A stretch of DNA of 44,005 bases from Vectrevirus T205P4: sequence record OZ035727.1. The stretch is one strand, 5' to 3'. How positions within the stretch are numbered: position 1 is the first letter of the stretch; the number at the start of each line of letters is the position of its first letter. Both the position numbers and the translations under genes were made by a program. This document shows, piece after piece, positions 1-44,005 of the stretch. The notes under the pieces were generated by a model. It was given only the letters and a program-made list of their open reading frames with translations, did no database searches and had not been told where the DNA came from.

Positions 1-46
1 TAATAAGTTCAAGATTTGGAGAGAGAAGCGTGAGCGTACACAATAA
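1..46 (+). CDS. Possible 3' end of the holin gene that begins at 43857 (valid only if window end and start are contiguous in the real genome)
   Basis: The 43857 ORF runs off the window end in frame; continuing at base 1 gives ...YNKFKIWREKRERTQ and a stop at 44-46, a basic tail like that of T7 gp17.5. Inference only. Confidence 0.3.
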   Translation, partial: NKFKIWREKRERTQ

Positions 47-329
47 ACATGCAGCTACAGAGGATGAGGTTGGCATTCTGCATGGTGCTATTACCAAAAT
101 CTTCAATAAGAAAGCACAGGCAATACTGGACACTATAGAAGAAGACCCTGATGCAGCATTACATTTAGTGTCTGGTAAGGATATTGGTGCGATGTGTAAG
201 TGGGTTCTTGATAACGGCATTACCGCCACACCTGCTGCACAGCAGGAAGAGTCCAAGTTATCTAAGCGCCTCAAGGCTATCCGAGAGGCATCCAGTGGTA
301 AGATAATTCAATTCACTAAGGAGGATTGA
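30..329 (+). CDS. Terminase small subunit (DNA maturase A-like), 99 aa, GTG start
   Basis: GGAGAGAGAAG RBS before GTG at 30; 4-nt overlap with the large terminase gene; size and position match T7 gp18-type. No motif-level confirmation. Confidence 0.55.
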   Translation: MSVHNKHAATEDEVGILHGAITKIFNKKAQAILDTIEEDPDAALHLVSGKDIGAMCKWVLDNGITATPAAQQEESKLSKRLKAIREASSGKIIQFTKED

Positions 330-2227
330 TGGCTAAGGCAAGAGAATCACAAGCGGAGGCTCTTGCCAGATGGGAGATGCTACAGGAGTTACAGCAGACC
401 TTTCCTTACACAGCGGAAGGTTTGCTTCTCTTTGCAGATACAGTTATTCATAACTTAATTGCAGGCAACCCTCATCTGATTCGTATGCAGGCGGATATCT
501 TGAAGTTCCTATTTTACGGACACAAGTACCGCCTCATCGAAGCGCCTCGTGGTATCGCTAAGACAACATTATCAGCAATCTATACGGTATTCCGTATTAT
601 TCATGAACCGCATAAGCGTATCATGGTTGTGTCCCAAAACGCCAAGCGAGCAGAGGAAATCGCAGGTTGGGTAGTTAAAATCTTCCGTGGCTTAGACTTT
701 CTTGAGTTTATGCTGCCGGATATCTACGCTGGGGACCGTGCATCCGTTAAGGCGTTTGAGATTCATTACACCCTCCGTGGTAGTGATAAGTCTCCTTCTG
801 TATCCTGTTACTCAATCGAAGCAGGTATGCAGGGTGCTCGTGCTGATATTATTCTAGCGGATGACGTAGAGTCGATGCAGAATGCTCGTACGGCAGCGGG
901 CCGTGCCTTGCTTGAGGAACTGACTAAGGAGTTTGAATCTATCAACCAGTTTGGGGATATCATTTACCTTGGTACACCTCAGAACGTAAACTCTATCTAC
1001 AACAACCTACCTGCTCGTGGTTACTCTGTTCGTATCTGGACTGCGCGTTACCCTTCAGTAGAGCAAGAGCAATGTTATGGCGACTTCCTTGCACCTATGA
1101 TTGTTCAAGATATGAAGGACAACCCAGCACTTCGCTCAGGGTACGGGTTGGATGGTAATAGTGGTGCACCTTGTGCCCCTGAAATGTATGATGATGAAGT
1201 CCTGATTGAGAAGGAAATCTCTCAGGGTGCTGCTAAGTTCCAGCTTCAGTTCATGCTTAACACTCGCATGATGGATGCTGACAGATACCCATTACGCCTG
1301 AACAATCTAATCTTCACCTCGTTTGGTACAGAGGAAGTCCCTGTGATGCCTACGTGGAGTAATGATTCCATAAACATCATTGGTGATGCACCTAAGTATG
1401 GTAACAAGCCTACGGATTTCATGTACAGACCTGTAGCTCGCCCATACGAATGGGGTGCTGTCTCCCGCAAGATTATGTATATTGACCCTGCGGGTGGTGG
1501 TAAGAATGGGGACGAGACGGGTGTAGCCATCGTATTCCTGCACGGCACATTCATTTATGTGTATCAGTGCTTTGGTGTACCTGGCGGATACCGAGAATCG
1601 TCCCTGAATCGCATTGTGCAGGCCGCAAAGCAGGCTGGTGTTAAAGAGGTATTCATTGAGAAGAACTTTGGTCATGGCGCGTTTGAGGCGGTAATTAAGC
1701 CGTACTTTGAACGAGAGTGGCCTGTAACTCTGGAAGAGGATTACGCCACCGGACAGAAAGAGTTGCGTATCATTGAGACGCTGGAGCCGCTCATGGCAGC
1801 CCATAGGCTTATCTTCAATGCAGAGATGGTGAAGTCAGACTTTGAGTCGGTACAGCACTATCCGCTTGAACTACGCATGTCCTACAGTCTTTTCAATCAA
1901 ATGTCGAACATAACGATTGAGAAGAACAGCCTCCGGCACGATGACCGCCTAGACGCCCTGTATGGCGCTATACGGCAATTAACTTCTCAGATAGACTATG
2001 ACGAGGTTACACGGATTAATCGCCTCAGAGCGCAGGAGATGCGCGATTACATCCATGCTATGAATACACCTCATCTACGCAGGGCAATGCTATATGGAGA
2101 TTACGGTACTGAGCGAAGAGTGACCAACACTTCCGTAGCGATGCAGCAGCGAGTTTACGGGCAGAACTGCCGAAATAAATCGGCAAGCAGAAATACACTT
2201 TCTGCAAGGATTTCAAGGACTTATTAA
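326..2227 (+). CDS. Terminase large subunit (T7 gp19-like), 633 aa
   Basis: Long ORF with ATPase-type P-loop-like region (EAPRGIAKTT) and the size and position expected of a T7-group large terminase. Confidence 0.92.
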   Translation: MMAKARESQAEALARWEMLQELQQTFPYTAEGLLLFADTVIHNLIAGNPHLIRMQADILKFLFYGHKYRLIEAPRGIAKTTLSAIYTVFRIIHEPHKRIMVVSQNAKRAEEIAGWVVKIFRGLDFLEFMLPDIYAGDRASVKAFEIHYTLRGSDKSPSVSCYSIEAGMQGARADIILADDVESMQNARTAAGRALLEELTKEFESINQFGDIIYLGTPQNVNSIYNNLPARGYSVRIWTARYPSVEQEQCYGDFLAPMIVQDMKDNPALRSGYGLDGNSGAPCAPEMYDDEVLIEKEISQGAAKFQLQFMLNTRMMDADRYPLRLNNLIFTSFGTEEVPVMPTWSNDSINIIGDAPKYGNKPTDFMYRPVARPYEWGAVSRKIMYIDPAGGGKNGDETGVAIVFLHGTFIYVYQCFGVPGGYRESSLNRIVQAAKQAGVKEVFIEKNFGHGAFEAVIKPYFEREWPVTLEEDYATGQKELRIIETLEPLMAAHRLIFNAEMVKSDFESVQHYPLELRMSYSLFNQMSNITIEKNSLRHDDRLDALYGAIRQLTSQIDYDEVTRINRLRAQEMRDYIHAMNTPHLRRAMLYGDYGTERRVTNTSVAMQQRVYGQNCRNKSASRNTLSARISRTY

Positions 2228-2966: not shown

Positions 2967-2968
2967 TA

Positions 2969-5888: not shown

Positions 5889-5895
5889 GCAACAG

Positions 5896-7933: not shown

Positions 7934-7987
7934 TCCTGTACAAGGATTAACCAAAGTCAAAATTTTGATATGGTCGTGTGTGAGGTG

Positions 7988-8340
7988 TCTCGCCCTCGCC
8001 CTCGCCGGATTTCCCCCATACGGGTCCGCGCTGCGGTTGGCTTGGGAATTGGGCTGGGCTGGTCCGTCTTCAACCTGCTGCCGCAGGAAGCTCGACGGGT
8101 GGGCGAGGGCTTGCCTTGTACTCGCTTAGTGGTACACAAGGAGAACGCCTAGGAAGCGCTAGGGCACGCCTTAGTATTGGACAAGGTGATTGCCTTAGTT
8201 CAACCGCTTAGGGCTTACACGGGCCGTTTTAGGGCCATTCCTGAGCGTTTGACAGGGTGTGAGGGCGTGGGCTATCTGTTCGTTTCGCTACGCTTCACTC
8301 ACTGCTCCTCACTTCGTTCGTCGCTGCGGTAGCCTGATGT
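7988..8340. other. GC-rich non-coding block, candidate genome terminus / direct terminal repeat
   Basis: Clearly more GC-rich than the rest of the window by eye; begins TCTCGCCCTCGCCCTCGCC and contains TTTCCCCCATACGGG, resembling the T7 left-end motif TTCCCCCATAGGGGG; no credible ORF. Confidence 0.45.
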
Positions 8341-8700
8341 GTACCTTAGGTTATTACTTGATGGATAGCTTAGGTTATAGCTTAGTGGCCTACCTTAGTT
8401 ATAACCTTAGTGCATAGCTTAGTATCAGCTTAGTAGTGTACCTTAGTAAGTCTTAGTGTCTTCTCTTAGTGATTGCACATGCAAGCATGTAAGATGCCAT
8501 TAGGTCGCGGTCGGTAGACCGCTAAAGAAGGAGAATAGTAATAAGATGCAGTAGGAGGAACACCAGAAACCTAGCCAACCTAGCCTATCCTAGCTCTGTA
8601 TCTATTGCTTTTCCTTAGTCTCACACGTTAGACAACCTAGGTTTGTCTTAGTAGTTGCGACATGTATCACATAAATAATCTATCTTAGTGCGATTTAGTG
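8340..8700. repeat. Array of short CTTAGT/CTTAGG motifs (more than 15 copies) in the terminal non-coding region
   Basis: Motif recurs at irregular 10-25 nt spacing (e.g. agcttaggttatagcttagtggcctaccttagttataaccttagtg...); analogous to the CCTAAAG repeats near the T7 left end. Confidence 0.6.
8618..8633. repeat. Degenerate copy of the 16-bp palindrome (GTCTCACACGTTAGAC, 1 mismatch)
   Basis: One substitution relative to the GTCTCACACGTGAGAC family. Confidence 0.4.
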
Positions 8701-8894: not shown

Positions 8895-8952
8895 TTGCTT
8901 AGTGTAACCTATGTATGCCGTGGTTAATTACTTATTGAATGAGGAATTAGCT

Positions 8953-11467: not shown

Positions 11468-14095
11468 ATGCAAGACTTACACGCTATTCAACTTCAACTT
11501 GAAGAAGAAATGTTTAACGGCGGTATCCGTCGCTTTGAAGCGGACCAACAACGCCAGATTGCATCCGGTAATGAATCAGACACGGCATGGAATCGCCGCT
11601 TATTGTCTGAGTTAATCGCGCCAATGGCTGAAGGCATTCAGGCATACAAGGAAGAGTATGAAGGTAAAAGAGGCCGTGCACCGCGTGCATTGGCTTTCAT
11701 TAACTGCGTTGAAAACGAAGTGGCAGCATATATCACGATGAAAATCGTTATGGACATGCTGAATACAGACGTTACCTTACAAGCCATCGCTATGAATGTA
11801 GCAGACCGCATCGAGGACCAAGTACGTTTTAGCAAGCTGGAAGGTCACGCCGCCAAATACTTTGAGAAAGTTAAGAAGTCACTTAAGGCAAGTAAGACTA
11901 AATCATATCGCCATGCGCACAACGTAGCGGTCGTGGCTGAGAAGTCTGTATCTGACCGTGACGCGGACTTTTCCCGCTGGGAGGCATGGCCCAAAGATAC
12001 CTTGTTGCAAATAGGTATGACACTGCTAGAAATCTTGGAGAATAGCGTATTCTTTAACGGGCAACCTGTTTTCCTCCGCACCTTGCGCACTAATGGCGGC
12101 AAACACGGTGTTTACTACTTACAGACCAGCGAACACGTTGGCGAGTGGATAACTGCATTTAAGGAACATGTAGCGCAGCTTAGTCCTGCCTATGCGCCTT
12201 GCGTCATCCCTCCGCGTCCGTGGGTGTCGCCTTTTAATGGTGGATTCCACACTGAGAAGGTAGCAAGTCGTATCCGTCTTGTTAAAGGCAACCGCGAGCA
12301 CGTACGCAAGCTCACTAAGAAGCAAATGCCAGCCGTTTACAAGGCTGTTAATGCTTTGCAGGCAACTAAATGGCAGGTTAACAAGGAAGTATTGCAGGTT
12401 GTTGAAGATGTAATTCGTCTCGACCTTGGTTATGGTGTGCCTTCCTTTAAGCCGCTTATCGACCGCGAGAACAAGCCAGCTAATCCAGTGCCGTTAGAGT
12501 TCCAGCACCTGCGAGGCCGTGAACTTAAAGAGATGCTAACGCCGGAACAATGGCAAGCCTTCATCAACTGGAAAGGCGAATGTACCAAGCTGTATACCGC
12601 TGAAACTAAGCGCGGCAGCAAGTCGGCGGCAACCGTTCGCATGGTCGGGCAGGCCCGTAAATACAGCCAGTTTGACGCAATATACTTCGTGTATGCACTG
12701 GATAGCCGTTCGCGCGTTTATGCGCAATCTAGCACGCTCTCGCCGCAATCAAACGACCTAGGCAAGGCGTTACTGCGTTTCACCGAAGGGCAGCCTCTAA
12801 ATAGCTCTGAGGCGCTTAAGTGGTTTTTGGTGAACGGGGCGAATAACTGGGGTTGGGATAAGAAAACCTTTAACGTGCGCACCGCTAACGTGCTGGATGG
12901 TGAATTCCAAGACATGTGCCGCGACATTGCAGCCGACCCGCTGACCTTCACTCAATGGGTGAATGCAGATTCACCTTATGGCTTTCTTGCGTGGTGCTTT
13001 GAATACGCGCGTTATCTGGATGCACTGGATGAAGGAACACAAGATAAATTCATGACGCATTTACCAGTACATCAAGATGGTAGTTGTTCTGGTATCCAGC
13101 ACTATAGCGCGATGTTACGCGATGAAGTAGGTGCGAAAGCGGTAAACCTCAAGCCGTCAGACGAGCCGCAAGATATTTATGGGGCCGTTGCGCAAGTAGT
13201 TATCCAGAAAAACTATGCTTACATGAATGCAGATGATGCAGAAACTTTCACATCTGGAAGCGTAACACTTACAGGTGCAGAACTGCGTAGCATGGCTGGC
13301 GCGTGGGATATGATAGGTATCACTCGCGGCTTAACCAAAAAGCCGGTAATGACCTTGCCTTACGGCTCCACCCGCTTAACCTGCCGTGAGTCAGTGATTG
13401 ATTATATCGTTGATTTGGAAGAAAAAGAGGCACAACGAGCTATTGCAGAAGGGCGGACGGCGAATCCTGTTCACCCTTTTGATAATGACCGCAAAGATTA
13501 CCTGACACCGGGCGCAGCTTACAACTATATGACTGCTTTAATTTGGCCTTCTATCTCTGAGGTTGTTAAAGCTCCTATAGTGGCGATGAAAATGATTCGC
13601 CAGCTTGCACGATTCGCAGCTAAAAGAAACGAAGGGCTAGAGTACACCTTACCTACTGGTTTCATCTTGCAACAAAAGATAATGGCTACCGACATGCTAC
13701 GCGTATCCACTTGCTTGATGGGTGAAATCAAGATGAGTCTACAGATTGAGACTGATGTAGTGGATGAAACGGCAATGATGGGCGCTGCCGCTCCTAACTT
13801 TGTTCACGGGCATGATGCTAGTCATCTCATCCTGACTGTATGTGACCTCGTTGACAAGGGCATTACATCTATCGCAGTCATCCATGATTCCTTTGGTACT
13901 CATGCAGGCCGTACAGCAGACCTGCGGGATAGCTTAAGGGCAGAAATGGTGAAGATGTATCAAGGTCGTAATGCTCTGCAAAGCCTGTTAGATGAGCATG
14001 AGGAGCGCTGGTTAGTAGACACCGGAATCCAAGTGCCAGAGCAAGGGGAGTTTGACCTTAACGAGATATTAGTATCTGACTATTGCTTTGCATAA
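11468..14095 (+). CDS. Single-subunit DNA-dependent RNA polymerase, SP6-type, 875 aa
   Basis: N-terminus [32 protein letters not shown]... and C-terminus ...[10 protein letters not shown]...DYCFA match my recollection of SP6 RNAP; conserved catalytic region [18 protein letters not shown]. Confidence 0.97.
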
Positions 14096-14184: not shown

Positions 14185-14208
14185 CATTTACCGGACACTA
14201 TAGGAGAA
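14185..14208 (+). promoter_or_regulatory. Phage RNAP promoter P3 (CATTTACCGGACACTATAGGAGAA)
   Basis: Consensus match; first of two tandem promoters between RNAP and primase genes. Confidence 0.7.
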
Positions 14209-14562: not shown

Positions 14563-16551
14563 ATGGCTATTATTCAGAATGTACCGTGTCCTGCCTGTCA
14601 AAAGAATGGACATGATGTTACCGGCAACCATCTCATGATCTTTGATGATGGTGCTGGCTATTGCAACCGTGGTCACTTCCACGATAACGGAAAGCCATAC
14701 TACCATAAGCCCGAAGGTGGCATCGAGATAACCGAGTTGCCTATTACTGGCAATATCAAATATACACCTTCTCAGTTCAAAGAGATGGAGAAGGAAGGGA
14801 AGATAAGCGACCCTAAGCTACGCGCCATCGCACTTGGTGGTATGCGTATGAAAGACCGTTGGGAGGTTATGAATGAGCAAGAAAGGGCAGACCAAGAAGC
14901 AGAGTGGAAACTTGATGTTGAATGGTTCCTCACGCTTAAGCGTAAGAACCTTGTATCCCGACACATTCGCGGCGACATCGCAGCACTATATGATGTGCGA
15001 GTGGGCCATGATGAAGAAGGAAGAGTCAATCGTCACTACTACCCCCGCTTCGAGAAAGGTGAGCTAGTAGGCGCTAAGTGCCGTACCTTACCTAAAGACT
15101 TTAAGTTTGGTCATTTAGGTAAACTATTTGGTATGCAAGATCTTTTCGGTATGAATACTTTGTCTCACGTGTTAGACAAGGGAAGACGAAAGGATTGCTT
15201 GCTTATCGTAGGCGGCGAACTTGATGCACTAGCAGCCCAGCAGATGCTTCTTGATTCCGCCAAGGGCACTAAGTGGGAAGGACAACCATATCATGTGTGG
15301 TCTGTCAACAAGGGTGAGTCTTGCCTTGAAGAGATAGTGCAGAACCGTGAACATATCGCTCAATTCAAGAAGATTATATGGGGCTTTGATGGGGATGAGG
15401 TTGGGCAGAAGCAGAACCAACAAGCGGCTCGCCTGTTTCCTGGTAAATCCTATATCCTTGAGTATCCTTCTGGGTGTAAAGATGCTAACAAGGCATTGAT
15501 GGCTGGCAAGGCTAAAGAATTTGTGGATGCTTGGTTTAATGCCAAGTCATCTGATGAAGTCTTTGGTAGCCAGATTAAATCTATCGCATCTCAAAGGGAT
15601 AAGCTCAAGGCTGCACGTCCCGAGCAAGGATTGTCATGGCCTTGGCCTAAGCTGAACAAGGTAACGCTAGGTATTCGTAAGAACCAGCTTATCATTGTAG
15701 GTGCAGGGTCTGGTGTAGGTAAGACTGAGTTCCTTCGTGAAGTAGTTAAGCACCTCATTGAAGAACACGGTGAATCTGTAGGCATCATTTCTACAGAAGA
15801 CCCGATGGTCAAGGTGTCCCGTGCTTTTATCGGCAAGTGGATTGATAAGCGTATTGAGTTACCGCCAACCAACGACCCGAAAGAAGATGGATACCGTGAG
15901 GTGTTCGACTACACCGAGGAAGAAGCTAACGCCGCCATTGATTATGTAGCTGATACAGGTAAGCTGTTTGTAGCTGACCTAGAGGGTGACTATTCGATGG
16001 AAAAGGTAGAGCAAACTTGCCTAGAGTTTGAGGCTATGGGCATTTCTAATATCATCATTGATAACTTAACGGGGATTAAATTAGATGAGCGTGCTTTTGG
16101 TGGGAAGGTTGGTGCACTTGATGAATGCGTCAAGCGGATTGGTACTATCAAAGACCGACACCCGGTTACTATATTCCTTGTATCACACCTTACACGTCCT
16201 CCGGCAAACCGTACCCAACACGAAGAAGGTGGCGAAGTTATCCTTTCTGACTTCCGAGGCTCAGGAGCTATCGGATTCTGGGCATCTTACGCCTTGGGGA
16301 TTGAGCGTAATACAAGAGCTGAAACGCTTGACGAAAGGACTACCACGTACATCTCATGTGTCAAAGACCGCGACCAAGGTATCTGGACTGGAACCAAGGT
16401 CATGCTTAAGGGTGACATTCAAACCGGACGTTTAATGGAACCACAAGCCCGTACTAAGTCATTTGATACAGGTGAAGCAAGGCAACAAGAAGTACCAGAT
16501 TTACCGGACACTATAGAAGAGACTAACTTCGATGAAGAAAGTGAGTTCTGA
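14563..16551 (+). CDS. DNA primase/helicase (T7 gp4-like), 662 aa
   Basis: N-terminal Cys4 zinc ribbon (CPACQKNGHD...CNRGH), helicase Walker A GAGSGVGKT, acidic C-terminus ...FDEESEF ending in Phe as in T7 gp4. Confidence 0.93.
   Translation: MAIIQNVPCPACQKNGHDVTGNHLMIFDDGAGYCNRGHFHDNGKPYYHKPEGGIEITELPITGNIKYTPSQFKEMEKEGKISDPKLRAIALGGMRMKDRWEVMNEQERADQEAEWKLDVEWFLTLKRKNLVSRHIRGDIAALYDVRVGHDEEGRVNRHYYPRFEKGELVGAKCRTLPKDFKFGHLGKLFGMQDLFGMNTLSHVLDKGRRKDCLLIVGGELDALAAQQMLLDSAKGTKWEGQPYHVWSVNKGESCLEEIVQNREHIAQFKKIIWGFDGDEVGQKQNQQAARLFPGKSYILEYPSGCKDANKALMAGKAKEFVDAWFNAKSSDEVFGSQIKSIASQRDKLKAARPEQGLSWPWPKLNKVTLGIRKNQLIIVGAGSGVGKTEFLREVVKHLIEEHGESVGIISTEDPMVKVSRAFIGKWIDKRIELPPTNDPKEDGYREVFDYTEEEANAAIDYVADTGKLFVADLEGDYSMEKVEQTCLEFEAMGISNIIIDNLTGIKLDERAFGGKVGALDECVKRIGTIKDRHPVTIFLVSHLTRPPANRTQHEEGGEVILSDFRGSGAIGFWASYALGIERNTRAETLDERTTTYISCVKDRDQGIWTGTKVMLKGDIQTGRLMEPQARTKSFDTGEARQQEVPDLPDTIEETNFDEESEF
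16498..16521 (+). promoter_or_regulatory. Phage RNAP promoter P5 (GATTTACCGGACACTATAGAAGAG), inside the 3' end of the primase/helicase gene
   Basis: Perfect consensus copy about 30 nt before the helicase stop codon. Confidence 0.7.
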
Positions 16552-16627: not shown

Positions 16628-17311
16628 ATGTATAAATTAGTATTGAATGCAGGTGATTATGTTCGTAACATCAATGAAGCCTCACGTCGTTATCATTGCC
16701 GTGGTGTAGTGGCTCGTGTAAGTGAGAACATGTATCATGTAGAGTATGAGGATGGTATTAAGGCTTCTTACCACAAGAAAACAGCACATAAATATCTTGA
16801 AAAGATTGTAGAGATAAACAATCAATGTAAGTGCATACATGATGAGGTTTGCGATAAATGTGCTCGCCAGATGCTTAAGAATTTCCTAGCTCCTCTTTAT
16901 TATGGTGCTGGCCCTCAAACACTAGCAGAGTACATGGCAGAAAAGAAAACCACAATTAAGAAAGAGCGCCGCAATGTAATCACTGGTAAGACTCAAAGTG
17001 AAATGATTAAACTATGTGGCACTGCATTAGGTGTTACGCAGTTTAACACTCGTGCTCTTGGTAAATCCACAGGACAAGCTATGGTGAAAATTGGTGAAGC
17101 TATGATGCATCCAAATGTACCTGTACGAATCATGGATGTTGACCATGCAATCACAGAGCATGGCACACCACGGCGTGTAGCTAATAATCATTTTGCCGAC
17201 ACTATAGAAGGTATTATTCGTAAGCAAGAGTTGAAGGGTCTTCACATCTTAAATGGTGAAGAATTACTGTACCTACCTATCGTTACTGAAGAAACATACG
17301 TGAATATCTAA
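16628..17311 (+). CDS. Hypothetical protein, about 227 aa, with Cys cluster (CKCIHDEVCDKC)
   Basis: GGAGA RBS before ATG at 16628; no recognisable catalytic motif. Confidence 0.65.
   Translation: MYKLVLNAGDYVRNINEASRRYHCRGVVARVSENMYHVEYEDGIKASYHKKTAHKYLEKIVEINNQCKCIHDEVCDKCARQMLKNFLAPLYYGAGPQTLAEYMAEKKTTIKKERRNVITGKTQSEMIKLCGTALGVTQFNTRALGKSTGQAMVKIGEAMMHPNVPVRIMDVDHAITEHGTPRRVANNHFADTIEGIIRKQELKGLHILNGEELLYLPIVTEETYVNI
17189..17212 (+). promoter_or_regulatory. Possible weak phage promoter (CATTTTGCCGACACTATAGAAGGT) internal to the 16628 gene
   Basis: Core GACACTATAGAAGG conserved, upstream half deviates at 3 positions. Confidence 0.35.
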
Positions 17312-21411: not shown

Positions 21412-21433
21412 TTTACTGGACACTATAGAAGGA
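21410..21433 (+). promoter_or_regulatory. Phage RNAP promoter P6 (GATTTACTGGACACTATAGAAGGA)
   Basis: Consensus copy overlapping the stop of the 21151 gene. Confidence 0.8.
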
Positions 21434-22181: not shown

Positions 22182-22202
22182 TTACTGGACACTATAGAAC
22201 AA
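22180..22202 (+). promoter_or_regulatory. Phage RNAP promoter P7 (AATTACTGGACACTATAGAACAA)
   Basis: Consensus-like, with AAC in place of AAG after the start site. Confidence 0.7.
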
Positions 22203-23324: not shown

Positions 23325-23348
23325 TATTTACTGGACACTATAGAAGAG
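23325..23348 (+). promoter_or_regulatory. Phage RNAP promoter P8 (TATTTACTGGACACTATAGAAGAG)
   Basis: Perfect consensus. Confidence 0.8.
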
Positions 23349-26443: not shown

Positions 26444-26461
26444 TTGACACTATAGAACAAA
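26438..26461 (+). promoter_or_regulatory. Phage RNAP promoter P9 (GATTTAGTTGACACTATAGAACAA)
   Basis: Consensus-like, closest to the canonical SP6 form in its upstream half; overlaps the phosphoesterase stop. Confidence 0.65.
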
Positions 26462-31468: not shown

Positions 31469-31493
31469 GTATTTACTGGACACTATAGAAGGG
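31469..31493 (+). promoter_or_regulatory. Phage RNAP promoter P10 (TATTTACTGGACACTATAGAAGGG) for the capsid gene, with 5' leader hairpin GGGAGA-AATG-TCTCCC
   Basis: Perfect consensus; the transcript would begin with a 6-bp stem-loop. Confidence 0.85.
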
Positions 31494-33539: not shown

Positions 33540-35941
33540 TGGAAGTACAAGGTTCATTAGGTAGACAAATCCAAGGGATTAGCCAGCAGCCTCCAGCGGT
33601 ACGTCTTGATGGTCAATGTACGACTATGGTGAACATGGTCCCTGATGTAGTGAATGGAACTCAATCCCGCATGGGTACAACTCACATTGCTAAGCTCTTG
33701 GATGAAGGTACAGATAATATGGCAACGCACCATTATCGCAGGGGTGAGGGAGATGAAGAGTATTTCTTCACCTTAAAGAAGGGGCAAGTGCCAGAGATAT
33801 TTGATAAGCATGGACGCAAGTGCAATGTCATCTCTCAAGATGCACCTATTGCCTACCTTTCTGAAGTTGTTAACCCTAGGGAAGATGTGCAATTCATGAC
33901 TATAGCTGATGTTACTTTTATGCTTAACCGTAGGAAAGTGGTTAAAGTTAGTAATAGGAAGTCACCTAAAGTTGGAGATAAAGCCATTGTGTTTTGTGCA
34001 TATGGTCAATACGGTACATCTTATTCCATTGTAATTAATGGGGCCAACGCTGCTAGTTTTAAAACACCGGATGGTGGAAGTGCAGACCATGTTGAACAAA
34101 TTCGAACTGAACGTATCACTTCTGAATTGTACTCTAAGTTGCAGCAATGGAGCGGTGTGAGTGACTATGAAATACAAAGAGACGGTACTAGTATATTTAT
34201 CGAGAGACGGGATGGTGCTAGCTTTACAATAACAACCACCGATGGTGCAAAAGGTAAGGACTTAGTGGCTATCAAGAATAAAGTTAGCTCTACTGACCTA
34301 CTCCCTTCTCGTGCTCCTGCTGGTTATAAAGTACAAGTGTGGCCTACTGGCAGCAAACCTGAGTCTCGTTACTGGCTGCAAGCTGAGCCTAAAGAGGGAA
34401 ACCTTGTATCTTGGAAAGAAACAATAGCTGCCGATGTATTACTTGGGTTTGATAAAGGCACAATGCCTTACATTATTGAACGTACAGGTATCATCAACGG
34501 CATAGCTCAATTCAAGATAAGACAAGGTGATTGGGAAGATCGTAAAGTAGGGGATGACTTGACTAACCCTATGCCCTCTTTTATTGATGAGGAAGTACCC
34601 CAGACAATAGGTGGAATGTTCATGGTGCAGAACCGCCTATGCTTTACAGCAGGTGAAGCGGTTATTGCTTCTCGTACATCATACTTCTTCGATTTCTTTC
34701 GTTATACGGTTATCTCTGCATTGGCAACTGACCCATTTGATATTTTCTCAGATGCTAGCGAAGTCTACCAGCTAAAACATGCAGTGACCTTAGATGGCGC
34801 TACCGTGTTGTTCTCTGATAAGTCACAATTCATACTGCCAGGCGATAAGCCTTTAGAGAAGTCAAATGCATTGCTTAAGCCTGTTACAACATTTGAAGTG
34901 AACAATAAAGTGAAGCCAGTAGTAACTGGTGAATCGGTAATGTTTGCCACTAATGATGGTTCTTACTCTGGTGTACGAGAGTTCTATACAGACTCTTATA
35001 GTGACACTAAGAAGGCACAAGCAATCACAAGTCATGTGAATAAACTCATCGAAGGTAACATTACCAACATGGCAGCAAGCACCAATGTCAACAGGTTACT
35101 TGTCACTACCGATAAGTATCGTAACATAATCTACTGCTACGATTGGTTATGGCAAGGAACAGACCGTGTACAATCAGCATGGCATGTATGGAAGTGGCCT
35201 ATAGGTACAAAGGTGCGAGGTATGTTTTATTCTGGTGAATTACTTTACCTGCTCCTTGAGCGAGGGGATGGCGTATATCTGGAGAGGATGGACATGGGTG
35301 ATGCACTAACCTACGGTTTGAATGACCGCATCAGAATGGATAGGCAAGCAGAGTTAGTCTTCAAGTATTTTAAAGCAGAAGATGAATGGGTGTCTGAACC
35401 GCTTCCTTGGACTCCTACTAACCCAGAACTTTTAGATTGCATCTTAATCGAGGGTTGGGATTCATATATTGGTGGCTCTTTCTTATTCAAGTACAACCCT
35501 AGTGACAATACTTTGTCTACAACCTTTGATATGTATGATGACAGTCATGTAAAAGCGAAGGTTATTGTTGGTCAGATTTACCCTCAAGAGTTTGAACCTA
35601 CACCTGTGGTTATCAGAGACAATCAAGACCGTGTATCCTATATTGATGTACCAGTTGTAGGATTGGTTCACCTTAATCTTGACATGTACCCCGATTTCTC
35701 CGTAGAAGTTAAGAATGTGAAGAGTGGTAAAGTACGTAGAGTATTAGCGTCAAACCGTATAGGTGGTGCTCTCAATAATACAGTAGGCTATGTTGAACCG
35801 AGAGAAGGTGTCTTCAGATTTCCACTGAGAGCTAAGAGCACGGATGTTGTTTATCGTATTATTGTAGAGGCACCCCATACATTCCAGCTTCGTGATATTG
35901 AGTGGGAAGGGAGCTACAATCCAACCAAAAGGAGGGTCTAA
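33539..35941 (+). CDS. Tail tubular protein B (gp12-like), about 800 aa
   Basis: N-terminal GISQQP motif as in T7 gp12; TAATG coupling to the upstream gene. Confidence 0.88.
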   Translation: MEVQGSLGRQIQGISQQPPAVRLDGQCTTMVNMVPDVVNGTQSRMGTTHIAKLLDEGTDNMATHHYRRGEGDEEYFFTLKKGQVPEIFDKHGRKCNVISQDAPIAYLSEVVNPREDVQFMTIADVTFMLNRRKVVKVSNRKSPKVGDKAIVFCAYGQYGTSYSIVINGANAASFKTPDGGSADHVEQIRTERITSELYSKLQQWSGVSDYEIQRDGTSIFIERRDGASFTITTTDGAKGKDLVAIKNKVSSTDLLPSRAPAGYKVQVWPTGSKPESRYWLQAEPKEGNLVSWKETIAADVLLGFDKGTMPYIIERTGIINGIAQFKIRQGDWEDRKVGDDLTNPMPSFIDEEVPQTIGGMFMVQNRLCFTAGEAVIASRTSYFFDFFRYTVISALATDPFDIFSDASEVYQLKHAVTLDGATVLFSDKSQFILPGDKPLEKSNALLKPVTTFEVNNKVKPVVTGESVMFATNDGSYSGVREFYTDSYSDTKKAQAITSHVNKLIEGNITNMAASTNVNRLLVTTDKYRNIIYCYDWLWQGTDRVQSAWHVWKWPIGTKVRGMFYSGELLYLLLERGDGVYLERMDMGDALTYGLNDRIRMDRQAELVFKYFKAEDEWVSEPLPWTPTNPELLDCILIEGWDSYIGGSFLFKYNPSDNTLSTTFDMYDDSHVKAKVIVGQIYPQEFEPTPVVIRDNQDRVSYIDVPVVGLVHLNLDMYPDFSVEVKNVKSGKVRRVLASNRIGGALNNTVGYVEPREGVFRFPLRAKSTDVVYRIIVEAPHTFQLRDIEWEGSYNPTKRRV

Positions 35942-36687
35942 TGGCTATAGGTTCAGCCGTTATGGCTGGTATGTCTTCTATTGGTAGTATGTTTGCAGGT
36001 AGCGGTACAGCAGCCGCTGCTGGTGGTACTGCCGCAGCAGCAGGAGGGACAGCCGCCGCAGGTGGCGGAGGTTTGCTTGGCTCCCTTGGTAGTTTCTTAG
36101 GAGGTTCTTCTGCTGGCTTCTCTAATGCAGGACTGCTTAGTGCAGGTATGCAAGGTCTTGGTCTTCTAGGCAATCTTTTTGGTGGAAGTGATGAAGCCAA
36201 AGCTATGAAGAAAGCTCAGGAGGAGCAATGGCGGCAGCAGTTAATTGCTACACAAGAAGCATATAAGACAGTGGCAGATGCAGAACGCTCTGCTGCTAAA
36301 CAGTATCATGCGGATGCAATAAGCAATCAGGCTTCACTGCTACAGCAAAGAGCGCAGGTTGCACTACTTGCAGGTGCAACTGGCACTGGTGGTAACTCTA
36401 TATCTTCTATGCTGAATGACTTAGCAGCAGAGGGCGGGAGGAACCAGAGTACAATTATTGATAACTATGAGAATCAGAAGATTAACTTCACCAATCAGCT
36501 TAAGTCTATCCAGCGAGGTGGACAGATGCAGATGCGTGAGTTTAAGAAGCCTTCTGCCGTGAGCACCTTGGTGCAAGGTATACCGAGTCTGGCATCTGCC
36601 TATGTAACAGGTAGTAAGTCCGGCATGGCTTTAGGTAAAGCTTTAACTGATTCTCGTACATATTCATCTGGAACAAGAGGTATTTAA
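35941..36687 (+). CDS. Internal virion protein (gp14-like, Gly/Ala-rich N-terminus), about 249 aa
   Basis: AGGAGGG RBS; first of three internal-core genes. Confidence 0.7.
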   Translation: MAIGSAVMAGMSSIGSMFAGSGTAAAAGGTAAAAGGTAAAGGGGLLGSLGSFLGGSSAGFSNAGLLSAGMQGLGLLGNLFGGSDEAKAMKKAQEEQWRQQLIATQEAYKTVADAERSAAKQYHADAISNQASLLQQRAQVALLAGATGTGGNSISSMLNDLAAEGGRNQSTIIDNYENQKINFTNQLKSIQRGGQMQMREFKKPSAVSTLVQGIPSLASAYVTGSKSGMALGKALTDSRTYSSGTRGI

Positions 36688-39635
36688 TGGCAATTGAGCG
36701 ACAAGCAGTACAAGGTCTGCCACAAGTGCAGGCCACTTCTCCTAATGTCATGACCTTTGCACCTCAGCGAGTTGGAGGTGTGGAGGCTGGCGTAGCTTCT
36801 ACCTCCGGTAGTCGATTTATCGAAGACCTTATTCGAGCAGCCAGTAGTGTAGCTGATGTAACCACTGGTATCCTTAATCAAAAGATTGAGGAAGATAAGG
36901 TTGTTCAAATGGAACGGGCATATAACGGATTAATGCCTTCTGAGGATGCAACTCGTGGTGGCGCTCGTGCTAACATGCTTGTCAAAGCTCAACTGCTAGC
37001 TAATGATGAAGCAGCACGAATGAAAGACATGGCTACTCGTTTCCAAGGAACGGATGACGAGTGGACACAACTTATGGTTGACTCTCGTAATGAGATGCAG
37101 AATAAGCTGTTCCAGCAATACCCTGAGTTGCAAGGTGACAAAGATACTATGCGTATGGTCACTAATGTCTTCCAAGAACAGCAGCCTCAGATTTGGGCTA
37201 CACGAACCCAGCATAAACTTGACCGTGAACAAGCAGACCGTGAGGATACCTTTGACGGGCGAGTGGCTTCTACTTGGGATTCTAATATTGACCCTGAAGC
37301 CTCTGGCTATGCTTTACAGGAACGAATCCGCGAAGGTCTTACTCAAGGATTACTACCTGAACAGATGCACAAGAAGTTAGTCCAGCGAGCAATTTCACTT
37401 GCACAAGGCGGTGATGTTAGCATGGCTGAAGCCCTGAAGTATGTGAAGGACGATAAGGGTGTTTCTGTTTATGCTAAGAATCCACAGCTTATCACAGCCA
37501 TCACTAGTGGTAATGCAGTTTGGGCTAGGAATAATGTAGCTGATGTAACTCGTATGTCTTTCGAAGTTAAAGAATCCTACCTTGCAGGTGATTTAACTGA
37601 TGAAGAATTGTTGGAACGAGCACAGCACATTAATAATCTGACAGGTAACTCTGTCTTCTCTAATCCAGAGCTAGAGGCACTGATGCGCCAACGGGCTAAG
37701 CAGAATGCAGAGCTAGGTGCAATGCAGGATATGCGACGTGAGCTTTACTCCGACCGCCTGACTGGCTTCCAAGGTAAGACTGATAAAGAGAAGAAGGCTT
37801 ACATTGATGTTATCAAACAAGATAGCCAACTTTATGCAGACCAGCAAATCAAACAACGTGGCTTGGACCCTTACAGTCAAGAGGCTGAAGCTATTCGTGG
37901 TGCAGTGGAAGTGCAGCGCCTACAATTCATGAACTCCAAAGGCTTAGTGGATGATACCTTTGAGTCTCGTATCAAAGCCATGGAATCTATGCTATCGCCT
38001 GAGCACTTTGCCAAGGGCGAACCACAAGAGTTGATGACTATTCGCCAGTTGTGGGAACAGTTGCCAGAAGAGAGCCGAGGTGTCTTTGGTGACACGGTGA
38101 ATGGCTACATGGATAACTACAACACTGCACTACAAATGGGAGAGACACCTTTGCAGGCTGCAAGGTTTGCGCGTGAAGCACAGCAGAAATTCTCTCGTAC
38201 TGAGAAGGAAACCAAGAAGTTCAACTCAGCTATTGGAGAGGCACTGGATGAGGTGTCTGGTGCTGGCTGGTTTGATGGTAAAACCGAAGTGTCAGACTTA
38301 GGTAAAGCTATTGCGGAAGAAGAGTTACGAGCTAAGGCCAATATGTTGTGGTCTAGTGGTATGCGTAACATGGATTCCATCAAGAAGGCTTTAATTACTT
38401 GGGGCAATAAACGCTACACTCAATCAGAGGATGCAAAGACTTCCGGTGGCTATTTCATTAAAGGTGATTACACTTCTGCATCTGATATGCTTATGTCAGT
38501 TGGGAAAGGCGTAAACCCTACCGATGTACCTCTGGCGCTTGGTAGGTATGTAGAAACACAGATGCCAGAATTGAAGAAGGAGCTTCAAGAGTGGGAAACT
38601 AAAGATGATATATACATTGATTACAATGAACAGAAAGGAACTTTTGTGATTCGTGCTGGTGCAGCAGGTCGCCCTCTTTCTGGAGTAATCCCTGTAACCT
38701 CTTTAGATACTACTTCACTACTAGATTCTGCCTATCAGAAGAAAGTAGAGGAACGAGATAAAGGCGAGTATGTTCACCCGTATCGTACAGATATTGGTGC
38801 ACAAGAGCCTATGCCAGCTAAACCAACTGCCAAAGATATTGGTAAATTTGGACTAGCTAACTTCCTCATGTCTTCTGCTTTTGCTTCTGGTGAGAATCTG
38901 CCTTCTAACTTCGAGATTAACTATCGAGGTAATATGCAACAATTCTATGACAAGCTAGCTATGGATGAGAATAAAGATAAAGTTGGCTTTAATAAGGCAA
39001 CTGGAACCTTTACTCCATATAAAGACGCTCACGGTGAGTCTATCGGTTACGGTCATTTCTTAACGGAAGAAGAGAAGCGAAACGGGTATATTAAGATTGG
39101 CGATGAACTAGTTCCCTATCGAGGGTCTATGTCTCAGCTTACAGAGAGCAAGGCTCGCGCCCTTATGGAGCAAGATGCTAAGAAGCATGTGCCTCCTACT
39201 CGTGACTGGAAGATTCCGTTTGACCAGATGCATCCTGCACAGCAACGTGGCTTGATGGATTTAACCTACAATTTAGGTAAAGGTGGAATCCAGAACTCAC
39301 CGCGTGCTCTTGCTGCATTCAAAGCTGGTAAGCTTACGGAGGGTTTTATCGAAATGCTGGGCACTGCATCAAGTGAAGGTAAGCGTATTCCTGGCCTACT
39401 GAAGCGACGCGCTGAGGCATACAATATGGCATCTGCTGGTGGTGTGCCTAAGATTACCGAAGTGGAGACTCGTGAAGATGGCTCCATGTGGGTTAGGTTT
39501 GGTGGACCTATGCCAGCAGGTTCTGTCTCGGCATGGACTCATAAACGTATTGGCGCGGATGGTTGGTATCAGGTTTATGAGGCTGCACCTACCAAGTTAG
39601 CTAAAGGTTCTAAGGTAGGTAAAGTTAAGTTGTAG
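36687..39635 (+). CDS. Internal virion (ejection) protein with C-terminal lysozyme-like peptidoglycan hydrolase domain, 982 aa
   Basis: C-terminal region ESIGYGHFLT ... LMDLTYNLGKGG ... GKRIPGLLKRRAEAY resembles T4/lambda-type lysozyme folds. Confidence 0.8.
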   Translation: MAIERQAVQGLPQVQATSPNVMTFAPQRVGGVEAGVASTSGSRFIEDLIRAASSVADVTTGILNQKIEEDKVVQMERAYNGLMPSEDATRGGARANMLVKAQLLANDEAARMKDMATRFQGTDDEWTQLMVDSRNEMQNKLFQQYPELQGDKDTMRMVTNVFQEQQPQIWATRTQHKLDREQADREDTFDGRVASTWDSNIDPEASGYALQERIREGLTQGLLPEQMHKKLVQRAISLAQGGDVSMAEALKYVKDDKGVSVYAKNPQLITAITSGNAVWARNNVADVTRMSFEVKESYLAGDLTDEELLERAQHINNLTGNSVFSNPELEALMRQRAKQNAELGAMQDMRRELYSDRLTGFQGKTDKEKKAYIDVIKQDSQLYADQQIKQRGLDPYSQEAEAIRGAVEVQRLQFMNSKGLVDDTFESRIKAMESMLSPEHFAKGEPQELMTIRQLWEQLPEESRGVFGDTVNGYMDNYNTALQMGETPLQAARFAREAQQKFSRTEKETKKFNSAIGEALDEVSGAGWFDGKTEVSDLGKAIAEEELRAKANMLWSSGMRNMDSIKKALITWGNKRYTQSEDAKTSGGYFIKGDYTSASDMLMSVGKGVNPTDVPLALGRYVETQMPELKKELQEWETKDDIYIDYNEQKGTFVIRAGAAGRPLSGVIPVTSLDTTSLLDSAYQKKVEERDKGEYVHPYRTDIGAQEPMPAKPTAKDIGKFGLANFLMSSAFASGENLPSNFEINYRGNMQQFYDKLAMDENKDKVGFNKATGTFTPYKDAHGESIGYGHFLTEEEKRNGYIKIGDELVPYRGSMSQLTESKARALMEQDAKKHVPPTRDWKIPFDQMHPAQQRGLMDLTYNLGKGGIQNSPRALAAFKAGKLTEGFIEMLGTASSEGKRIPGLLKRRAEAYNMASAGGVPKITEVETREDGSMWVRFGGPMPAGSVSAWTHKRIGADGWYQVYEAAPTKLAKGSKVGKVKL

Positions 39636-39652
39636 TACCTAACTCAAGGCTT

Positions 39653-39668
39653 GTCTCACATGTGAGAC
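39653..39668. repeat. 16-bp palindrome GTCTCACATGTGAGAC, copy 6 (extended GCTTGTCTCACATGTGAGACAGG)
   Basis: Between the two large internal virion protein genes; same extended form as copy 3. Confidence 0.8.
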
Positions 39669-39699
39669 AGGTCTTTATGATAGGCACTATGGAGGAATT

Positions 39700-42600
39700 A
39701 TGGAACAAGACATTAAGACTAATTGGGCTGGATATGTCCAGTCTACTCCTGAGCCGTTTTCTATTGAGGCGGCTCCGGTATCGGCTCCTACGATACGCCA
39801 GCGTAATGAGTTACAAGAGCAAGTTCTTGAAGCTAAAGCTGACGCTGATATTTTAGGTGCTGTAGGTGCTGCCTTCCAGAATGAGTGGTTGGCATTCGGA
39901 GGCAAGCGGTGGTATGACCGTGCCACTGCTGATTTCACACCTCAACCAGACTTTGAGATACAACCTGAGCAACGTGAAGCACTACGTTTCAAATATGGTA
40001 CGGATATGATGCAGACAATCACTGAGGGTGTTCGTTCTGAGGATGAATTGAACTTCCGTATTCAGAATGCTGATGAAGATCTTGAGCGCAATAAGCGCAT
40101 TGCTCAGGCTGGCTGGGTTGGCTCTGTGGCGACGATTGGCGCTGCTGTGCTTGACCCTGTGGGATGGGTTGCCTCTATTCCAACCGGTGGTGCCGCTAAA
40201 GTTGGACTCGTAGGCCGTGCTGTGCGTGGCGCTATCGCCGCTGGCGTGAGTAATGCCGCTATTGAATCCATATTGGTCCAAGGTGACATGACTCGTGATT
40301 TAGATGACATTATGGTAGCACTAGGTTCCGGTATGGCTATGGGTGGCGTTATTGGCGCTGTAGCGCGTGGTAGGGCCGCTAAGCTCAGTGAGCAAGGTGA
40401 TGACAGGGCTGCGAACGTTGTGCGCAGTGCAGACGCAGGGGACCGCTATGTTCGTGCTGTTGCCGATGACAGTATCGGTGCGATGCGTGTTAAGGGCGCA
40501 GAGGTTCTAACTGAGGGTGCATTCGATATCTCCAGTAAGGGTGAAGACCTACTGAAAACCTTGCAACGAGAAGGTAATGCGATTGATATGACACCTCGCC
40601 GTTGGGCTGGAACTTTGTCTGCCCTCGGTACTGTCGTGCACTCATCTAAAGATGCAAGCATCCGAGGCCTTGGTGCTCGTCTGTTTGAATCCCCACAAGG
40701 TCTAGGTATGCAGAAGGCATCTGCTAGTCTTATGCAGAATACTAACTTAAATCGCCTGAAGTCTGCCGATATGAACCGTTTTAATGATGGATTTGATTTG
40801 TGGCTTAAAGAGAATAATATCAACCCAGTAGCAGGGCATACCAACTCTCATTATGTACAGCAATACAATGAAAAGGTGTGGGAGGCAGTGCGTATTGGCA
40901 TGGATGAGTCTACACCTAAATCTATCCGCATGGCTGCTGAGGGACAACAGGCTATGTACAGAGAGGCGCTGGCTTTACGTCAACGTTCTGGTGAAGCGGG
41001 ATTTGAAAAGGTAAAAGCCGACAACAAATATATGCCTGATATCTTTGATAGTATGAAAGCCAGACGTCAATTCGATATGCACGATAAAGAAGACATCATC
41101 GAACTTTTCTCTCGTGCCTACCAGAATGGCGCTCGTAAGATTCCAAAGGAAGCAGCAGATGAGATTGCACGAGCACAGGTAAATCGCGTTGCTGATGCTA
41201 CCTTAACTGGAAAGCTTAGTTTTGAAAAGGCAATGTCAGGTCAGACTAAGGCAGAGTATGAAGCTATCATGCGTAAGGCAGGCTTCAGTGATGAAGAAAT
41301 TGAAAAGATGATAGAAGCTCTGGATAACAAAGAAACCAGAGATAACATCTCTAACCGAGCTAAAATGAGTTTAGGATTAGATGTTACTCAAGAATACAAT
41401 GGCATTCGTATGCGTGACTTCATGAATACCAACGTGGAAGAGCTAACAGATAACTATATGAAGGAAGCAGCAGGTGGCGCTGCATTGGCTCGCCAAGGCT
41501 TCTCTACCTATCAGGCTGCACTTAATGCAATTGACCTTGTAGAGCGAAATGCACGAAACGCGGCTAAGGATAGCAAGGCTAGTTTGGCATTAGATGAAGA
41601 GATTCGTCAGATGCGAGAAGGTCTTCGCCTGATTATGGGCAAGTCGATTGATGCAGACCCACAAGCTATATCTACTAAGATGATGCGTCGTGGTCGTGAT
41701 ATCACAGGTGTGCTTCGCTTAGGTCAGATGGGCTTCGCACAGCTAGGTGAACTTGCTAACTTCATGGGTGAGTTTGGTATTGCTGCCACCACTATGGCTT
41801 TAGGTAAGCAATTCCGCTTCACCTCTAAGGCGTTGCGTAATGGCGATGGCTTCTTTCGAGATAAGAATTTAGCTGAGGTTGAGCGAATGGTAGGTTACAT
41901 CGGTGAGGATAACTGGCTAACAACTAAGGGTGCGCGTCCAGATGAGTTTGGTGATGTAACCACAGTGCGAGGTATGATGGCCCATTTTGACCAGTCCATG
42001 AACTCTATACGACGTGCTCAGACAAACCTATCCCTCTTCCGCATGGCACAGGGTTCTCTGGAGCGAATGACCAATAGGCAAATAGCTTTGTCTTTCATTG
42101 ACCACCTTGAAGGCAAGAAGATTATTCCTCAGAAGAAACTGGAGGAACTTGGTCTTACTCAGGAGTTCATGACTAACCTACAGAAGCACTATGATGCTAA
42201 CTCTAAAGGTTCTGGCTTGCTTGGCTTTGATACAATGCCTTATGCCATGGGTGAAACTTTAGCTAATGCTATTCGTCGTAAGTCAGGTCTAATTATCCAA
42301 CGTAACTTCATTGGTGATGAAGGTATCTGGATGAACAAAGCACTAGGTAAGACATTTGCACAGCTTAAGTCATTCTCTCTTGTATCTGGTGAGAAGCAAT
42401 TTGGTCGAGGGATTCGCCACGATAAGATTGGTCTAGCTAAGAAGACAGCCTTTGGCTTTGCTTTGGGTTCGATGGTGTATGCAGCGAAAGCCTATGTGAA
42501 CTCTATTGGACGAGAAGACCAAGATGAATATCTGGAAGAGAAGTTATCGCCTAAAGGGTTGGCCTTTGGTGCAATGGGTATGATGAGTACAACTGCTGTA

Positions 42601-42885
42601 TTTAGTCTAGGTGGAGATTTCTTAGGTGGCCTAGGTGTTCTACCTTCTGAGTTAGTACAATCCCGTTATGAGGCTGGCTTTCAGACTAAGGGTTTGATAG
42701 ACCAAATACCACTAGTAGGTGTTGGTCAAGATGCATATCGTTTAGCAGATTCTATAACTAAATATGCAGAGGGTGATACAGAAGGTGTAGATGTGGCACG
42801 TAGGGCTTTACGCTTAGTGCCTCTAACTAATGTAATAGGAATCCAGAACGCATTGCGTTATGGCTTAGATGAACTGGAGGATTGA
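39700..42885 (+). CDS. Large internal virion (ejection/core) protein, 1061 aa
   Basis: GGAGGA RBS; size and position of the largest T7-group core protein. Confidence 0.8.
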   Translation: MEQDIKTNWAGYVQSTPEPFSIEAAPVSAPTIRQRNELQEQVLEAKADADILGAVGAAFQNEWLAFGGKRWYDRATADFTPQPDFEIQPEQREALRFKYGTDMMQTITEGVRSEDELNFRIQNADEDLERNKRIAQAGWVGSVATIGAAVLDPVGWVASIPTGGAAKVGLVGRAVRGAIAAGVSNAAIESILVQGDMTRDLDDIMVALGSGMAMGGVIGAVARGRAAKLSEQGDDRAANVVRSADAGDRYVRAVADDSIGAMRVKGAEVLTEGAFDISSKGEDLLKTLQREGNAIDMTPRRWAGTLSALGTVVHSSKDASIRGLGARLFESPQGLGMQKASASLMQNTNLNRLKSADMNRFNDGFDLWLKENNINPVAGHTNSHYVQQYNEKVWEAVRIGMDESTPKSIRMAAEGQQAMYREALALRQRSGEAGFEKVKADNKYMPDIFDSMKARRQFDMHDKEDIIELFSRAYQNGARKIPKEAADEIARAQVNRVADATLTGKLSFEKAMSGQTKAEYEAIMRKAGFSDEEIEKMIEALDNKETRDNISNRAKMSLGLDVTQEYNGIRMRDFMNTNVEELTDNYMKEAAGGAALARQGFSTYQAALNAIDLVERNARNAAKDSKASLALDEEIRQMREGLRLIMGKSIDADPQAISTKMMRRGRDITGVLRLGQMGFAQLGELANFMGEFGIAATTMALGKQFRFTSKALRNGDGFFRDKNLAEVERMVGYIGEDNWLTTKGARPDEFGDVTTVRGMMAHFDQSMNSIRRAQTNLSLFRMAQGSLERMTNRQIALSFIDHLEGKKIIPQKKLEELGLTQEFMTNLQKHYDANSKGSGLLGFDTMPYAMGETLANAIRRKSGLIIQRNFIGDEGIWMNKALGKTFAQLKSFSLVSGEKQFGRGIRHDKIGLAKKTAFGFALGSMVYAAKAYVNSIGREDQDEYLEEKLSPKGLAFGAMGMMSTTAVFSLGGDFLGGLGVLPSELVQSRYEAGFQTKGLIDQIPLVGVGQDAYRLADSITKYAEGDTEGVDVARRALRLVPLTNVIGIQNALRYGLDELED

Positions 42886-43847
42886 TGAGTTATACTTTCA
42901 CAGAACATATAGCCAACGGTACGCAAGTAACCTATCCCTTTAGATTTGCTGGCAGGGATAAAGGCTATCTTCGTGCCTCAGATGTGATAGTGGAATCTCT
43001 TCAAGGTAACACTTGGATTGAGGTTACATCTGGCTGGCAATTAACTGGTACGCATCAAATCACTTTTGATGTAGCACCTGTTGCAGGTTTGAAGTTCCGT
43101 ATTCGAAGGGAAGTACAAAAGGAATATCCATACGCTGAGTTTGACCGTGGTGTTACCTTGGATATGAAGTCTTTAAATGGCTCTTTCATTCATATACTGG
43201 AGATTACACAGGAGTTACTTGATGGGTTTTATCCAGAAGGATACTTCATTAAACAGAATGTAAGCTGGGGCGGCAATAAGATTACTGATTTGGCTGATGG
43301 CACAAATCCGGGAGATGCAGTAAATAAGGGGCAGCTTGATGCCATCGACAAGAAGCATACAGATTGGAACGCCAAACAGGACATTGAGATTGCTGGCCTT
43401 AAGGCTGGTATGACTTCTGGTATTGCGCACAGAACTGTTCCTTGGTACACGATAGCCCAAGGTGGTGAGATTTCCGTAAAACCACCTTATGAATTTCAAG
43501 ATGCACTAGTTTTCCTTAATGGGGTATTGCAGCACCAAATTGTAGGCGCATACTCTATAAGCAACAACACTATCACTTTCGCAGAGCCGCTTGTGGCTGG
43601 TACAGAGGTGTATGTGTTGATTGGTAGTCGTGTGGCTACATCTGAACCTAATATTCAGTTAGAGTTGAACTTTGACTTAGTAGAAGGCCAACAAGTAGTA
43701 CAGATTGGCTCTGCATTTAAGTACATTGAGGTCTACCTTGATGGATTATTACAACCTAAACTTGCTTATCAGGTAGACGGTGACATTGTTACTTTCTCAG
43801 AGGGAGTGCCAGAATGCCGGATGACTGCTAAGATTATCACAGAATAA
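42885..43847 (+). CDS. Tail fiber adaptor protein (homolog of the T7 gp17 N-terminal tail-attachment domain), about 320 aa
   Basis: N-terminal region parallels the T7 gp17 tail-binding domain in pattern; lacks a receptor-binding domain, consistent with an adaptor that carries the two tailspikes. Confidence 0.85.
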   Translation: MSYTFTEHIANGTQVTYPFRFAGRDKGYLRASDVIVESLQGNTWIEVTSGWQLTGTHQITFDVAPVAGLKFRIRREVQKEYPYAEFDRGVTLDMKSLNGSFIHILEITQELLDGFYPEGYFIKQNVSWGGNKITDLADGTNPGDAVNKGQLDAIDKKHTDWNAKQDIEIAGLKAGMTSGIAHRTVPWYTIAQGGEISVKPPYEFQDALVFLNGVLQHQIVGAYSISNNTITFAEPLVAGTEVYVLIGSRVATSEPNIQLELNFDLVEGQQVVQIGSAFKYIEVYLDGLLQPKLAYQVDGDIVTFSEGVPECRMTAKIITE

Positions 43848-43856
43848 GGAGGTGGG

Positions 43857-44005
43857 ATGATTAACTCCGAACTGGTAGATAGTGGTGTGAAGCTTGCGCC
43901 ACCTGCACTCGTATCAGGTGGGTACTTCCTCGGTATCAGTTGGGATAATTGGGTGTTAATAGCAACATTCATTTATACCGTGTTGCAAATTGGGGACTGG
44001 TTTTA
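43857..44005 (+). CDS. Holin, T7 gp17.5-like (class II), 5' part; ORF runs off the window end
   Basis: AAGGAGG RBS; ...ATFIYTVLQIGDWF aligns with T7 holin ...AAIAYTVVQIGAKV as I recall it. Confidence 0.7.
   Translation, partial: MINSELVDSGVKLAPPALVSGGYFLGISWDNWVLIATFIYTVLQIGDWF

Follow-up and report, generated by a model that had tools for sequence, protein, structure and literature searches.

The Vectrevirus T205P4 record probably opens inside an intact holin gene of a linear, terminally redundant genome

The end of the Vectrevirus T205P4 record (OZ035727.1) cuts through a holin gene, which raises the question of what the two ends of this record represent. The window, i.e., the whole stretch of 44,005 nucleotides that was analysed, might be a circular genome, a fragment of a larger molecule or a linear genome written from an arbitrary base. 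An earlier note on this DNA had described an open reading frame that starts at 43857, runs off the window end, resumes in frame at base 1 and stops at 44-46, and exactly this course is present. On the plus strand, the ATG at 43857-43859 is followed by an open frame up to base 44005, amounting to 49 codons and two nucleotides (TA). When base 44005 is joined to base 1, codon 50 becomes TA/T (Tyr), followed by NKFKIWREKRERTQ and a TAA stop at 44-46. The joined product, MINSELVDSGVKLAPPALVSGGYFLGISWDNWVLIATFIYTVLQIGDWFYNKFKIWREKRERTQ, is 64 aa long; the 65 aa given previously was a one-residue miscount. A Shine-Dalgarno sequence, AAGGAGGT, precedes the ATG at 43846-43853, and the DNA immediately 5' of the start codon reads TAAGGAGGTGGG. 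The features around the junction are the following:

42882..43847, plus strand: tail fibre/adaptor gene (K1-5 gp37 homologue, PF03906), directly upstream of the holin gene
43857..44005, plus strand: holin gene, 5' part (codons 1-49 and two bases of codon 50), with the N-terminus and both hydrophobic segments
1..46, plus strand: holin gene, 3' part (last base of codon 50, codons 51-64 with the basic tail, TAA at 44-46)
30..329, plus strand: terS, small terminase subunit, 99 aa, GTG start at 30 (PF11123, E 3e-16; phrog_891)
329..2227, plus strand: terL, large terminase subunit (PF22530, E 1.6e-35)

Joining random window positions to the same leftover bases likewise yields 15 or more stop-free codons in ~25% of cases, so the in-frame wrap alone is weak evidence, and it is the homology that lifts it above chance. 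In a profile search, the joined protein matches Pfam PF10746 (Phage holin T7 family, holin superfamily II) with 95.5 bits (E 1.5e-27; cutoff 25.4 bits). Residues 4-59 align to positions 1-61 of the 61-position model, across the junction. PHROG 920 (holin) is matched over residues 1-63 (E 5.8e-28). The closest known counterpart is the K1-5 holin, gp38 (YP_654139.1; NC_008152 35219..35413), which also has 64 aa and is 98% identical across all 64 residues, with one V/I difference. Bases 1-43 code for 14 residues, all of them the same as in the tail of the K1-5 holin. The assignment as a T7-type holin, proposed in the earlier note from the letters only, is thus borne out by PF10746, PHROG 920 and K1-5 homology, and so is the basic C-terminus: the last 14 residues are hydrophilic and net-positive, with six K/R and two E.

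The T7 holin itself, gp17.5 (a class II holin, PF10746 Phage_holin_2_2), belongs to the same Pfam family and has 67 aa compared with 64 in the window. Both proteins share A-P, a W...A..YTV.QIG core (conserved Y-T-V-x-Q-I-G) and a charged C-terminus. However, their identity is only 32%, and five consecutive residues of the N-terminal segment are missing from the window protein. In a Kyte-Doolittle analysis with an 11-residue window, residues 32-46 are strongly hydrophobic (peak 2.45), and residues ~13-29, rich in Gly and Pro, are weakly hydrophobic (maximum 1.6). For a related SP6-group holin, a single TMD was predicted, and this protein acted as a weak, synergistic, pinholin-like factor (PMC4640515). 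Given the weak first segment and this single-TMD prediction, the window holin may have either one TMD or the two of the class II topology. By its homology, the joined reading frame is predicted to be an ordinary, intact holin of the T7 gp17.5 type, the split appearance of which would come only from a record origin inside codon 50.

The gene order agrees with this assignment. The tail fibre gene (42882-43847), the holin gene (43857-46) and terS (30-329) follow each other as in T7, where the holin gene also lies between the tail-fibre and small terminase genes. The holin gene had been placed just before the small terminase gene; the two do adjoin, but terS begins at GTG 30, inside the holin gene, and not after its stop. 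The overlap is 17 nt, and the GGAG ribosome-binding site of terS (18-21) is located within the holin tail codons. Overlap and ribosome-binding site are both conserved in K1-5, in which a tail-fibre gene likewise lies upstream of the holin gene and terS also starts with GTG. In T7, in contrast, gene 17.5 does not overlap gene 18. An alternative terS start, ATG 49, was rejected as it is out of frame, and GTG 30 agrees with the K1-5 annotation and with the Pfam and PHROG profiles. The terL gene starts with the ATG at 329, which shares bases with the stop codon of terS; the K1-5 annotation shows the same arrangement.

Downstream of the terminase genes, the window continues with these features:

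2380-2966: two small tandem paralogous genes (93 and 95 aa), both matching phrog_2725
2969-3313: endolysin (phrog_894)
3422-3571: second "holin", 49 aa, single TMD (phrog_4712)
3564-3858: Rz/Rz1-type spanins, with the Rz-like gene at 3564-3785
3598-3858: Rz1-like lipoprotein embedded in the Rz-like gene, with a TTSGC lipobox-like motif
3930-5888: first tailspike
5974-7632: second tailspike, 552 aa (phrog_20231)
11468-14095: single-subunit RNAP gene

The database label of phrog_2725, "acetyl-CoA acetyltransferase", looks doubtful for proteins of 93 and 95 aa. A separate lysis cassette (2969-3858) follows the terminase genes, which gives this phage two holin-annotated genes. In T7, the spanin genes come after gene 18, whereas in the window endolysin, second small "holin" and spanins form a cassette after terL. 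By analogy with T7 and other holins, the holin at the junction would accumulate in the inner membrane late in infection and trigger permeabilisation, after which the endolysin (2969-3313) could reach the cell wall and lysis would be completed by the Rz/Rz1 spanins (3564-3858). The second tailspike (5974-7632) stands at the position where K1-5 has its endosialidase. OZ035792 (Vectrevirus T205P5) is the only one of the searched phage records that shares this gene, at 98%, and a swap in host-capsule specificity is the probable explanation. After the tailspikes, the order is terminal-repeat region, early genes, RNAP, replication genes and a structural module that ends in the tail-fibre gene.

About 12 SP6-type RNAP promoter cores, GGACACTATAGAAG, were identified, all on the plus strand (15 matches compared with 1.05 expected by chance):

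127-141, plus strand: SP6-type promoter core
2232-2246, plus strand: SP6-type promoter core
3894-3908, plus strand: SP6-type promoter core
14192-14206, plus strand: SP6-type promoter core
16505-16519, plus strand: SP6-type promoter core
17196-17210, plus strand: SP6-type promoter core
21417-21431, plus strand: SP6-type promoter core
22186-22200, plus strand: SP6-type promoter core
23332-23346, plus strand: SP6-type promoter core
26444-26458, plus strand: SP6-type promoter core
31477-31491, plus strand: SP6-type promoter core

One of these cores (127-141) lies inside terS, only ~100 nt past the record origin. Since there is no core directly upstream of the holin gene, this gene is probably transcribed from the promoter at 31477. 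A scan of positions 7600-9200 for sigma-70 promoters and terminators gave nothing above the shuffled expectation.

The DNA across the junction is continuous in related phages. Window positions 43800-44005 joined to 1-110 align without gaps to K1-5 35159-35479, at 98% identity. A 406-nt junction-spanning query was found unbroken in 57 phage records, annotated there as "tail fiber", "holin" and "terminase small subunit". In phage LL11, the full 406 nt match as a single piece at 99.8%. Neither extra bases nor a frame break, either of which would have spoken against the joined gene of the earlier note, is seen in the gap-free K1-5 alignment or in the 57 contiguous phage records. These alignments indicate that no bases are lost or added at 44005/1.

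In two relatives, this locus is organized differently. In EC120 (locus piece 358-973) and ACG-C91 (319-933), an insert of ~440 bp separates the holin tail from terS, at a point corresponding to about base 28 of the window. The ACG-C91 annotation names it an HNH endonuclease gene, and in EC120 it is unannotated. Linked to the insert, the 3' half of the holin gene has diverged, and its product has 74 aa, with a sequence that departs from that of the window holin at about residue 33. The window holds the 64-aa allele free of the insert, and it also lacks a further HNH gene that EC120 carries between terS and terL. Tentatively, and with somewhat more doubt than confidence, the holin/terS boundary might be seen as a homing-endonuclease hotspot with two holin alleles. 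Should the diverged stretch prove to be a co-conversion tract, homing would be changing the lysis-timing protein within Vectrevirus.

At the genome scale, the window is a rotated version of the K1-5 map. In BLAST alignments, K1-5 105-35367 corresponds to window 8143-44005 and K1-5 35368-41394 to window 1-6017. K1-5 thus aligns end to end, and the cut falls at K1-5 35367/35368. The K1-5 record starts at the physical left end of the genome, leaving its holin gene internal and intact, whereas the window origin cuts codon 50. The nucleotide identity of the window to K1-5 and many other capsule-specific podoviruses of E. coli is 93-96%, and it is identical to none of them. In the phage collection of August 2025, the best hits reach ~94-96% (94-98% by region), and no record there is identical to the window. 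On the basis of these alignments, the window is classified as a complete, unit-length genome of a predicted lytic Vectrevirus (SP6/K1-5/K1E-like; Autographiviridae, Molineuxvirinae).

The relatives have defined physical ends. SP6-like phages are described as linear with direct terminal repeats (DTRs) (PMC4640515). Exact direct terminal repeats of 234 bp, 288 bp and 286 bp are present in K1-5, K1E and mutPK1A2, respectively; K1-5 was deposited as a linear genome, and the annotation of mutPK1A2 calls its own repeats a "redundant repeat". Both ends of these three genomes align to a single element of the window:

7988..8274: direct terminal repeat, single collapsed copy, 287 bp

The left boundary at 7988 reads TCTCGCCCTCGCCCTCGCCGG, and the right boundary at 8274 ends with GAGGGCGTGGGCTA. 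The start TCTCGCCCTCGCC and the end GTGGGCTA of the repeat are conserved between the window and K1-5, K1E and mutPK1A2. Several other records begin or end at the same positions: K1E, fTuEco01 and KAW1A4500 start at window 7988 and mutPK1A2 at 7989, while EC120, Sem2 and Sem3 end at 8273-8275. The start motif of the repeat occurs once in the window, and no direct repeat of at least 40 bp, including a second copy of the DTR, was found anywhere in its 44,005 nt. Short-read assembly collapses both repeats, so that the single copy is a property of the record and not of the virion. The termini of this isolate would accordingly be placed at 7988 and 8274, and the virion DNA would run from 7988 to 44005 and on from 1 to 8274; with 44,005 + 287 = ~44,292 bp, it would exceed the record by one repeat. 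This length is within the genus range of ~43.7-46.1 kb. The DNA just left of the repeat, ACCAAAGTCAAAATTTTGAT at 7949-7968, is conserved in K1-5, K1E and mutPK1A2 as well.

A further conserved element is located just inside the left repeat:

8345..8470, plus strand: CTTAGT/CTTAGG array, 10 motifs, spacing 10-24 bp, mostly 10-13 bp

On the plus strand, 15 of the 33 CTTAGT copies of the whole window lie within kb 8-9, and the array is conserved in K1-5, K1E and mutPK1A2. More CTTAGT/CTTAGG copies are found at 7794-8207 and 8614-8898. Phage T7 has a terminal repeat of 160 bp with short-repeat arrays beside it, and its replicative concatemer contains one repeat copy per unit. The window likewise holds one repeat copy per unit, with a DTR of 287 bp. 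The CTTAGT/CTTAGG array resembles the T7 arrays and may, by this analogy, serve packaging or end recognition. The repeat sequence and the CTTAGT/G flanking motif are nevertheless specific to the SP6/K1-5 group, unlike those of T7.

Taken together, the window is very probably (probability of about 0.93) a unit-length, repeat-collapsed and rotated record of a linear Vectrevirus with DTRs, in which an intact holin gene was opened inside codon 50. The virion DNA would be linear with short DTRs, which assembly would merge into one copy, so that the contig looks circular; this contig would then have been opened at a common, biologically arbitrary base in holin codon 50. The earlier note had concluded that the record was circularly closed or exactly genome-length rather than a fragment. 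Its second half holds in that the window, colinear with K1-5, is one whole genome unit rather than part of a larger replicon; the circular closure does not fit the linear, terminally redundant relatives, and the record is one repeat short of the genome length.

A genome that is truly circular, or circularly permuted by headful packaging without fixed ends, would also produce a record that closes perfectly on itself with a coherent gene over the wrap, and it would explain why a second repeat copy is absent. That absence, however, follows from assembly collapse itself. The closest relatives (93-96% nucleotide identity) were deposited as linear genomes with exact DTRs, their termini align to one window element with sharply conserved boundaries, and a T7-type terminase is present together with a T7-like short-repeat array flanking the repeat, which makes a genome without fixed ends very unlikely. 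Less probable still is an origin of the window from within a longer replicon, such as a prophage or a concatemer read, with an in-frame continuation by coincidence. Although about a quarter of random positions would prolong the frame equally, bases 1-43 supply the exact K1-5 holin tail, and the junction is unbroken in 57 independent records. Moreover, the entire K1-5 gene map is covered with no additional flanking DNA, and the length including one DTR is in the genus range. Scarcely any weight can be given either to ends that were mis-trimmed at circularisation, with bases lost or duplicated and a reconstructed holin that is partly an artefact. Trimming of assembler k-mer overlaps, manual or automated, often brings such errors. 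Here, the joined DNA is gap-free against K1-5 and matches LL11 in one piece, and no overlap between window start and end, the mark of an untrimmed circular contig, was found for k = 5-399 nt.

Within OZ035733-OZ035822 (PRJEB69283), 17 ENA "Vectrevirus" records begin and end at bases exactly homologous to those of the window, inside the same TA/T codon. All of them are Vectrevirus genomes that differ from the window (~92-98% identity by region). In OZ035792, the last 40 nt are the same as in the window and the first 40 nt differ at one base; joining its ends yields an identical holin, and this record also has a single DTR copy. A cut at one same base in 17 records identifies the origin as a bioinformatic convention and not a physical junction. 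According to the associated preprint (bioRxiv 10.1101/2023.11.22.567924), SPAdes assembled the Illumina reads of the PRJEB69283 genomes "in one single contig", and Bandage served to resolve ambiguities. Its methods mention only these two programs, and no re-orientation step. The window presumably comes from the same pipeline. Two explanations for the position of base 1 were discarded. No gene starts there in any frame, and neither the holin nor the terS frame has a start codon at this base; the HNH insertion point, for its part, is at about base 28. A comparable artefact is seen in OL362272, which starts at the terS GTG and has no holin annotated at its start, the overlapping holin gene having been cut. 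As 44005/1 is internal to the virion DNA, the PCR across the wrap that had been suggested as a check would give a product from any template and is uninformative on circularity.

The finding is an ordinary and already known one, and no new biology follows from it. Its consequences are for annotation: when rotated, repeat-collapsed records are opened inside a gene, this gene is truncated or missed by linear gene callers. In the present case, linear calling would lose the holin and leave the ribosome-binding site of terS 17 nt away from the edge of the record. A circular phage may also be wrongly deduced from records of this kind. The correct description would be a linear Vectrevirus of ~44.3 kb with a 287-bp terminal repeat (7988-8274) and an intact 64-aa T7-type holin encoded by 43857..44005 + 1..46.
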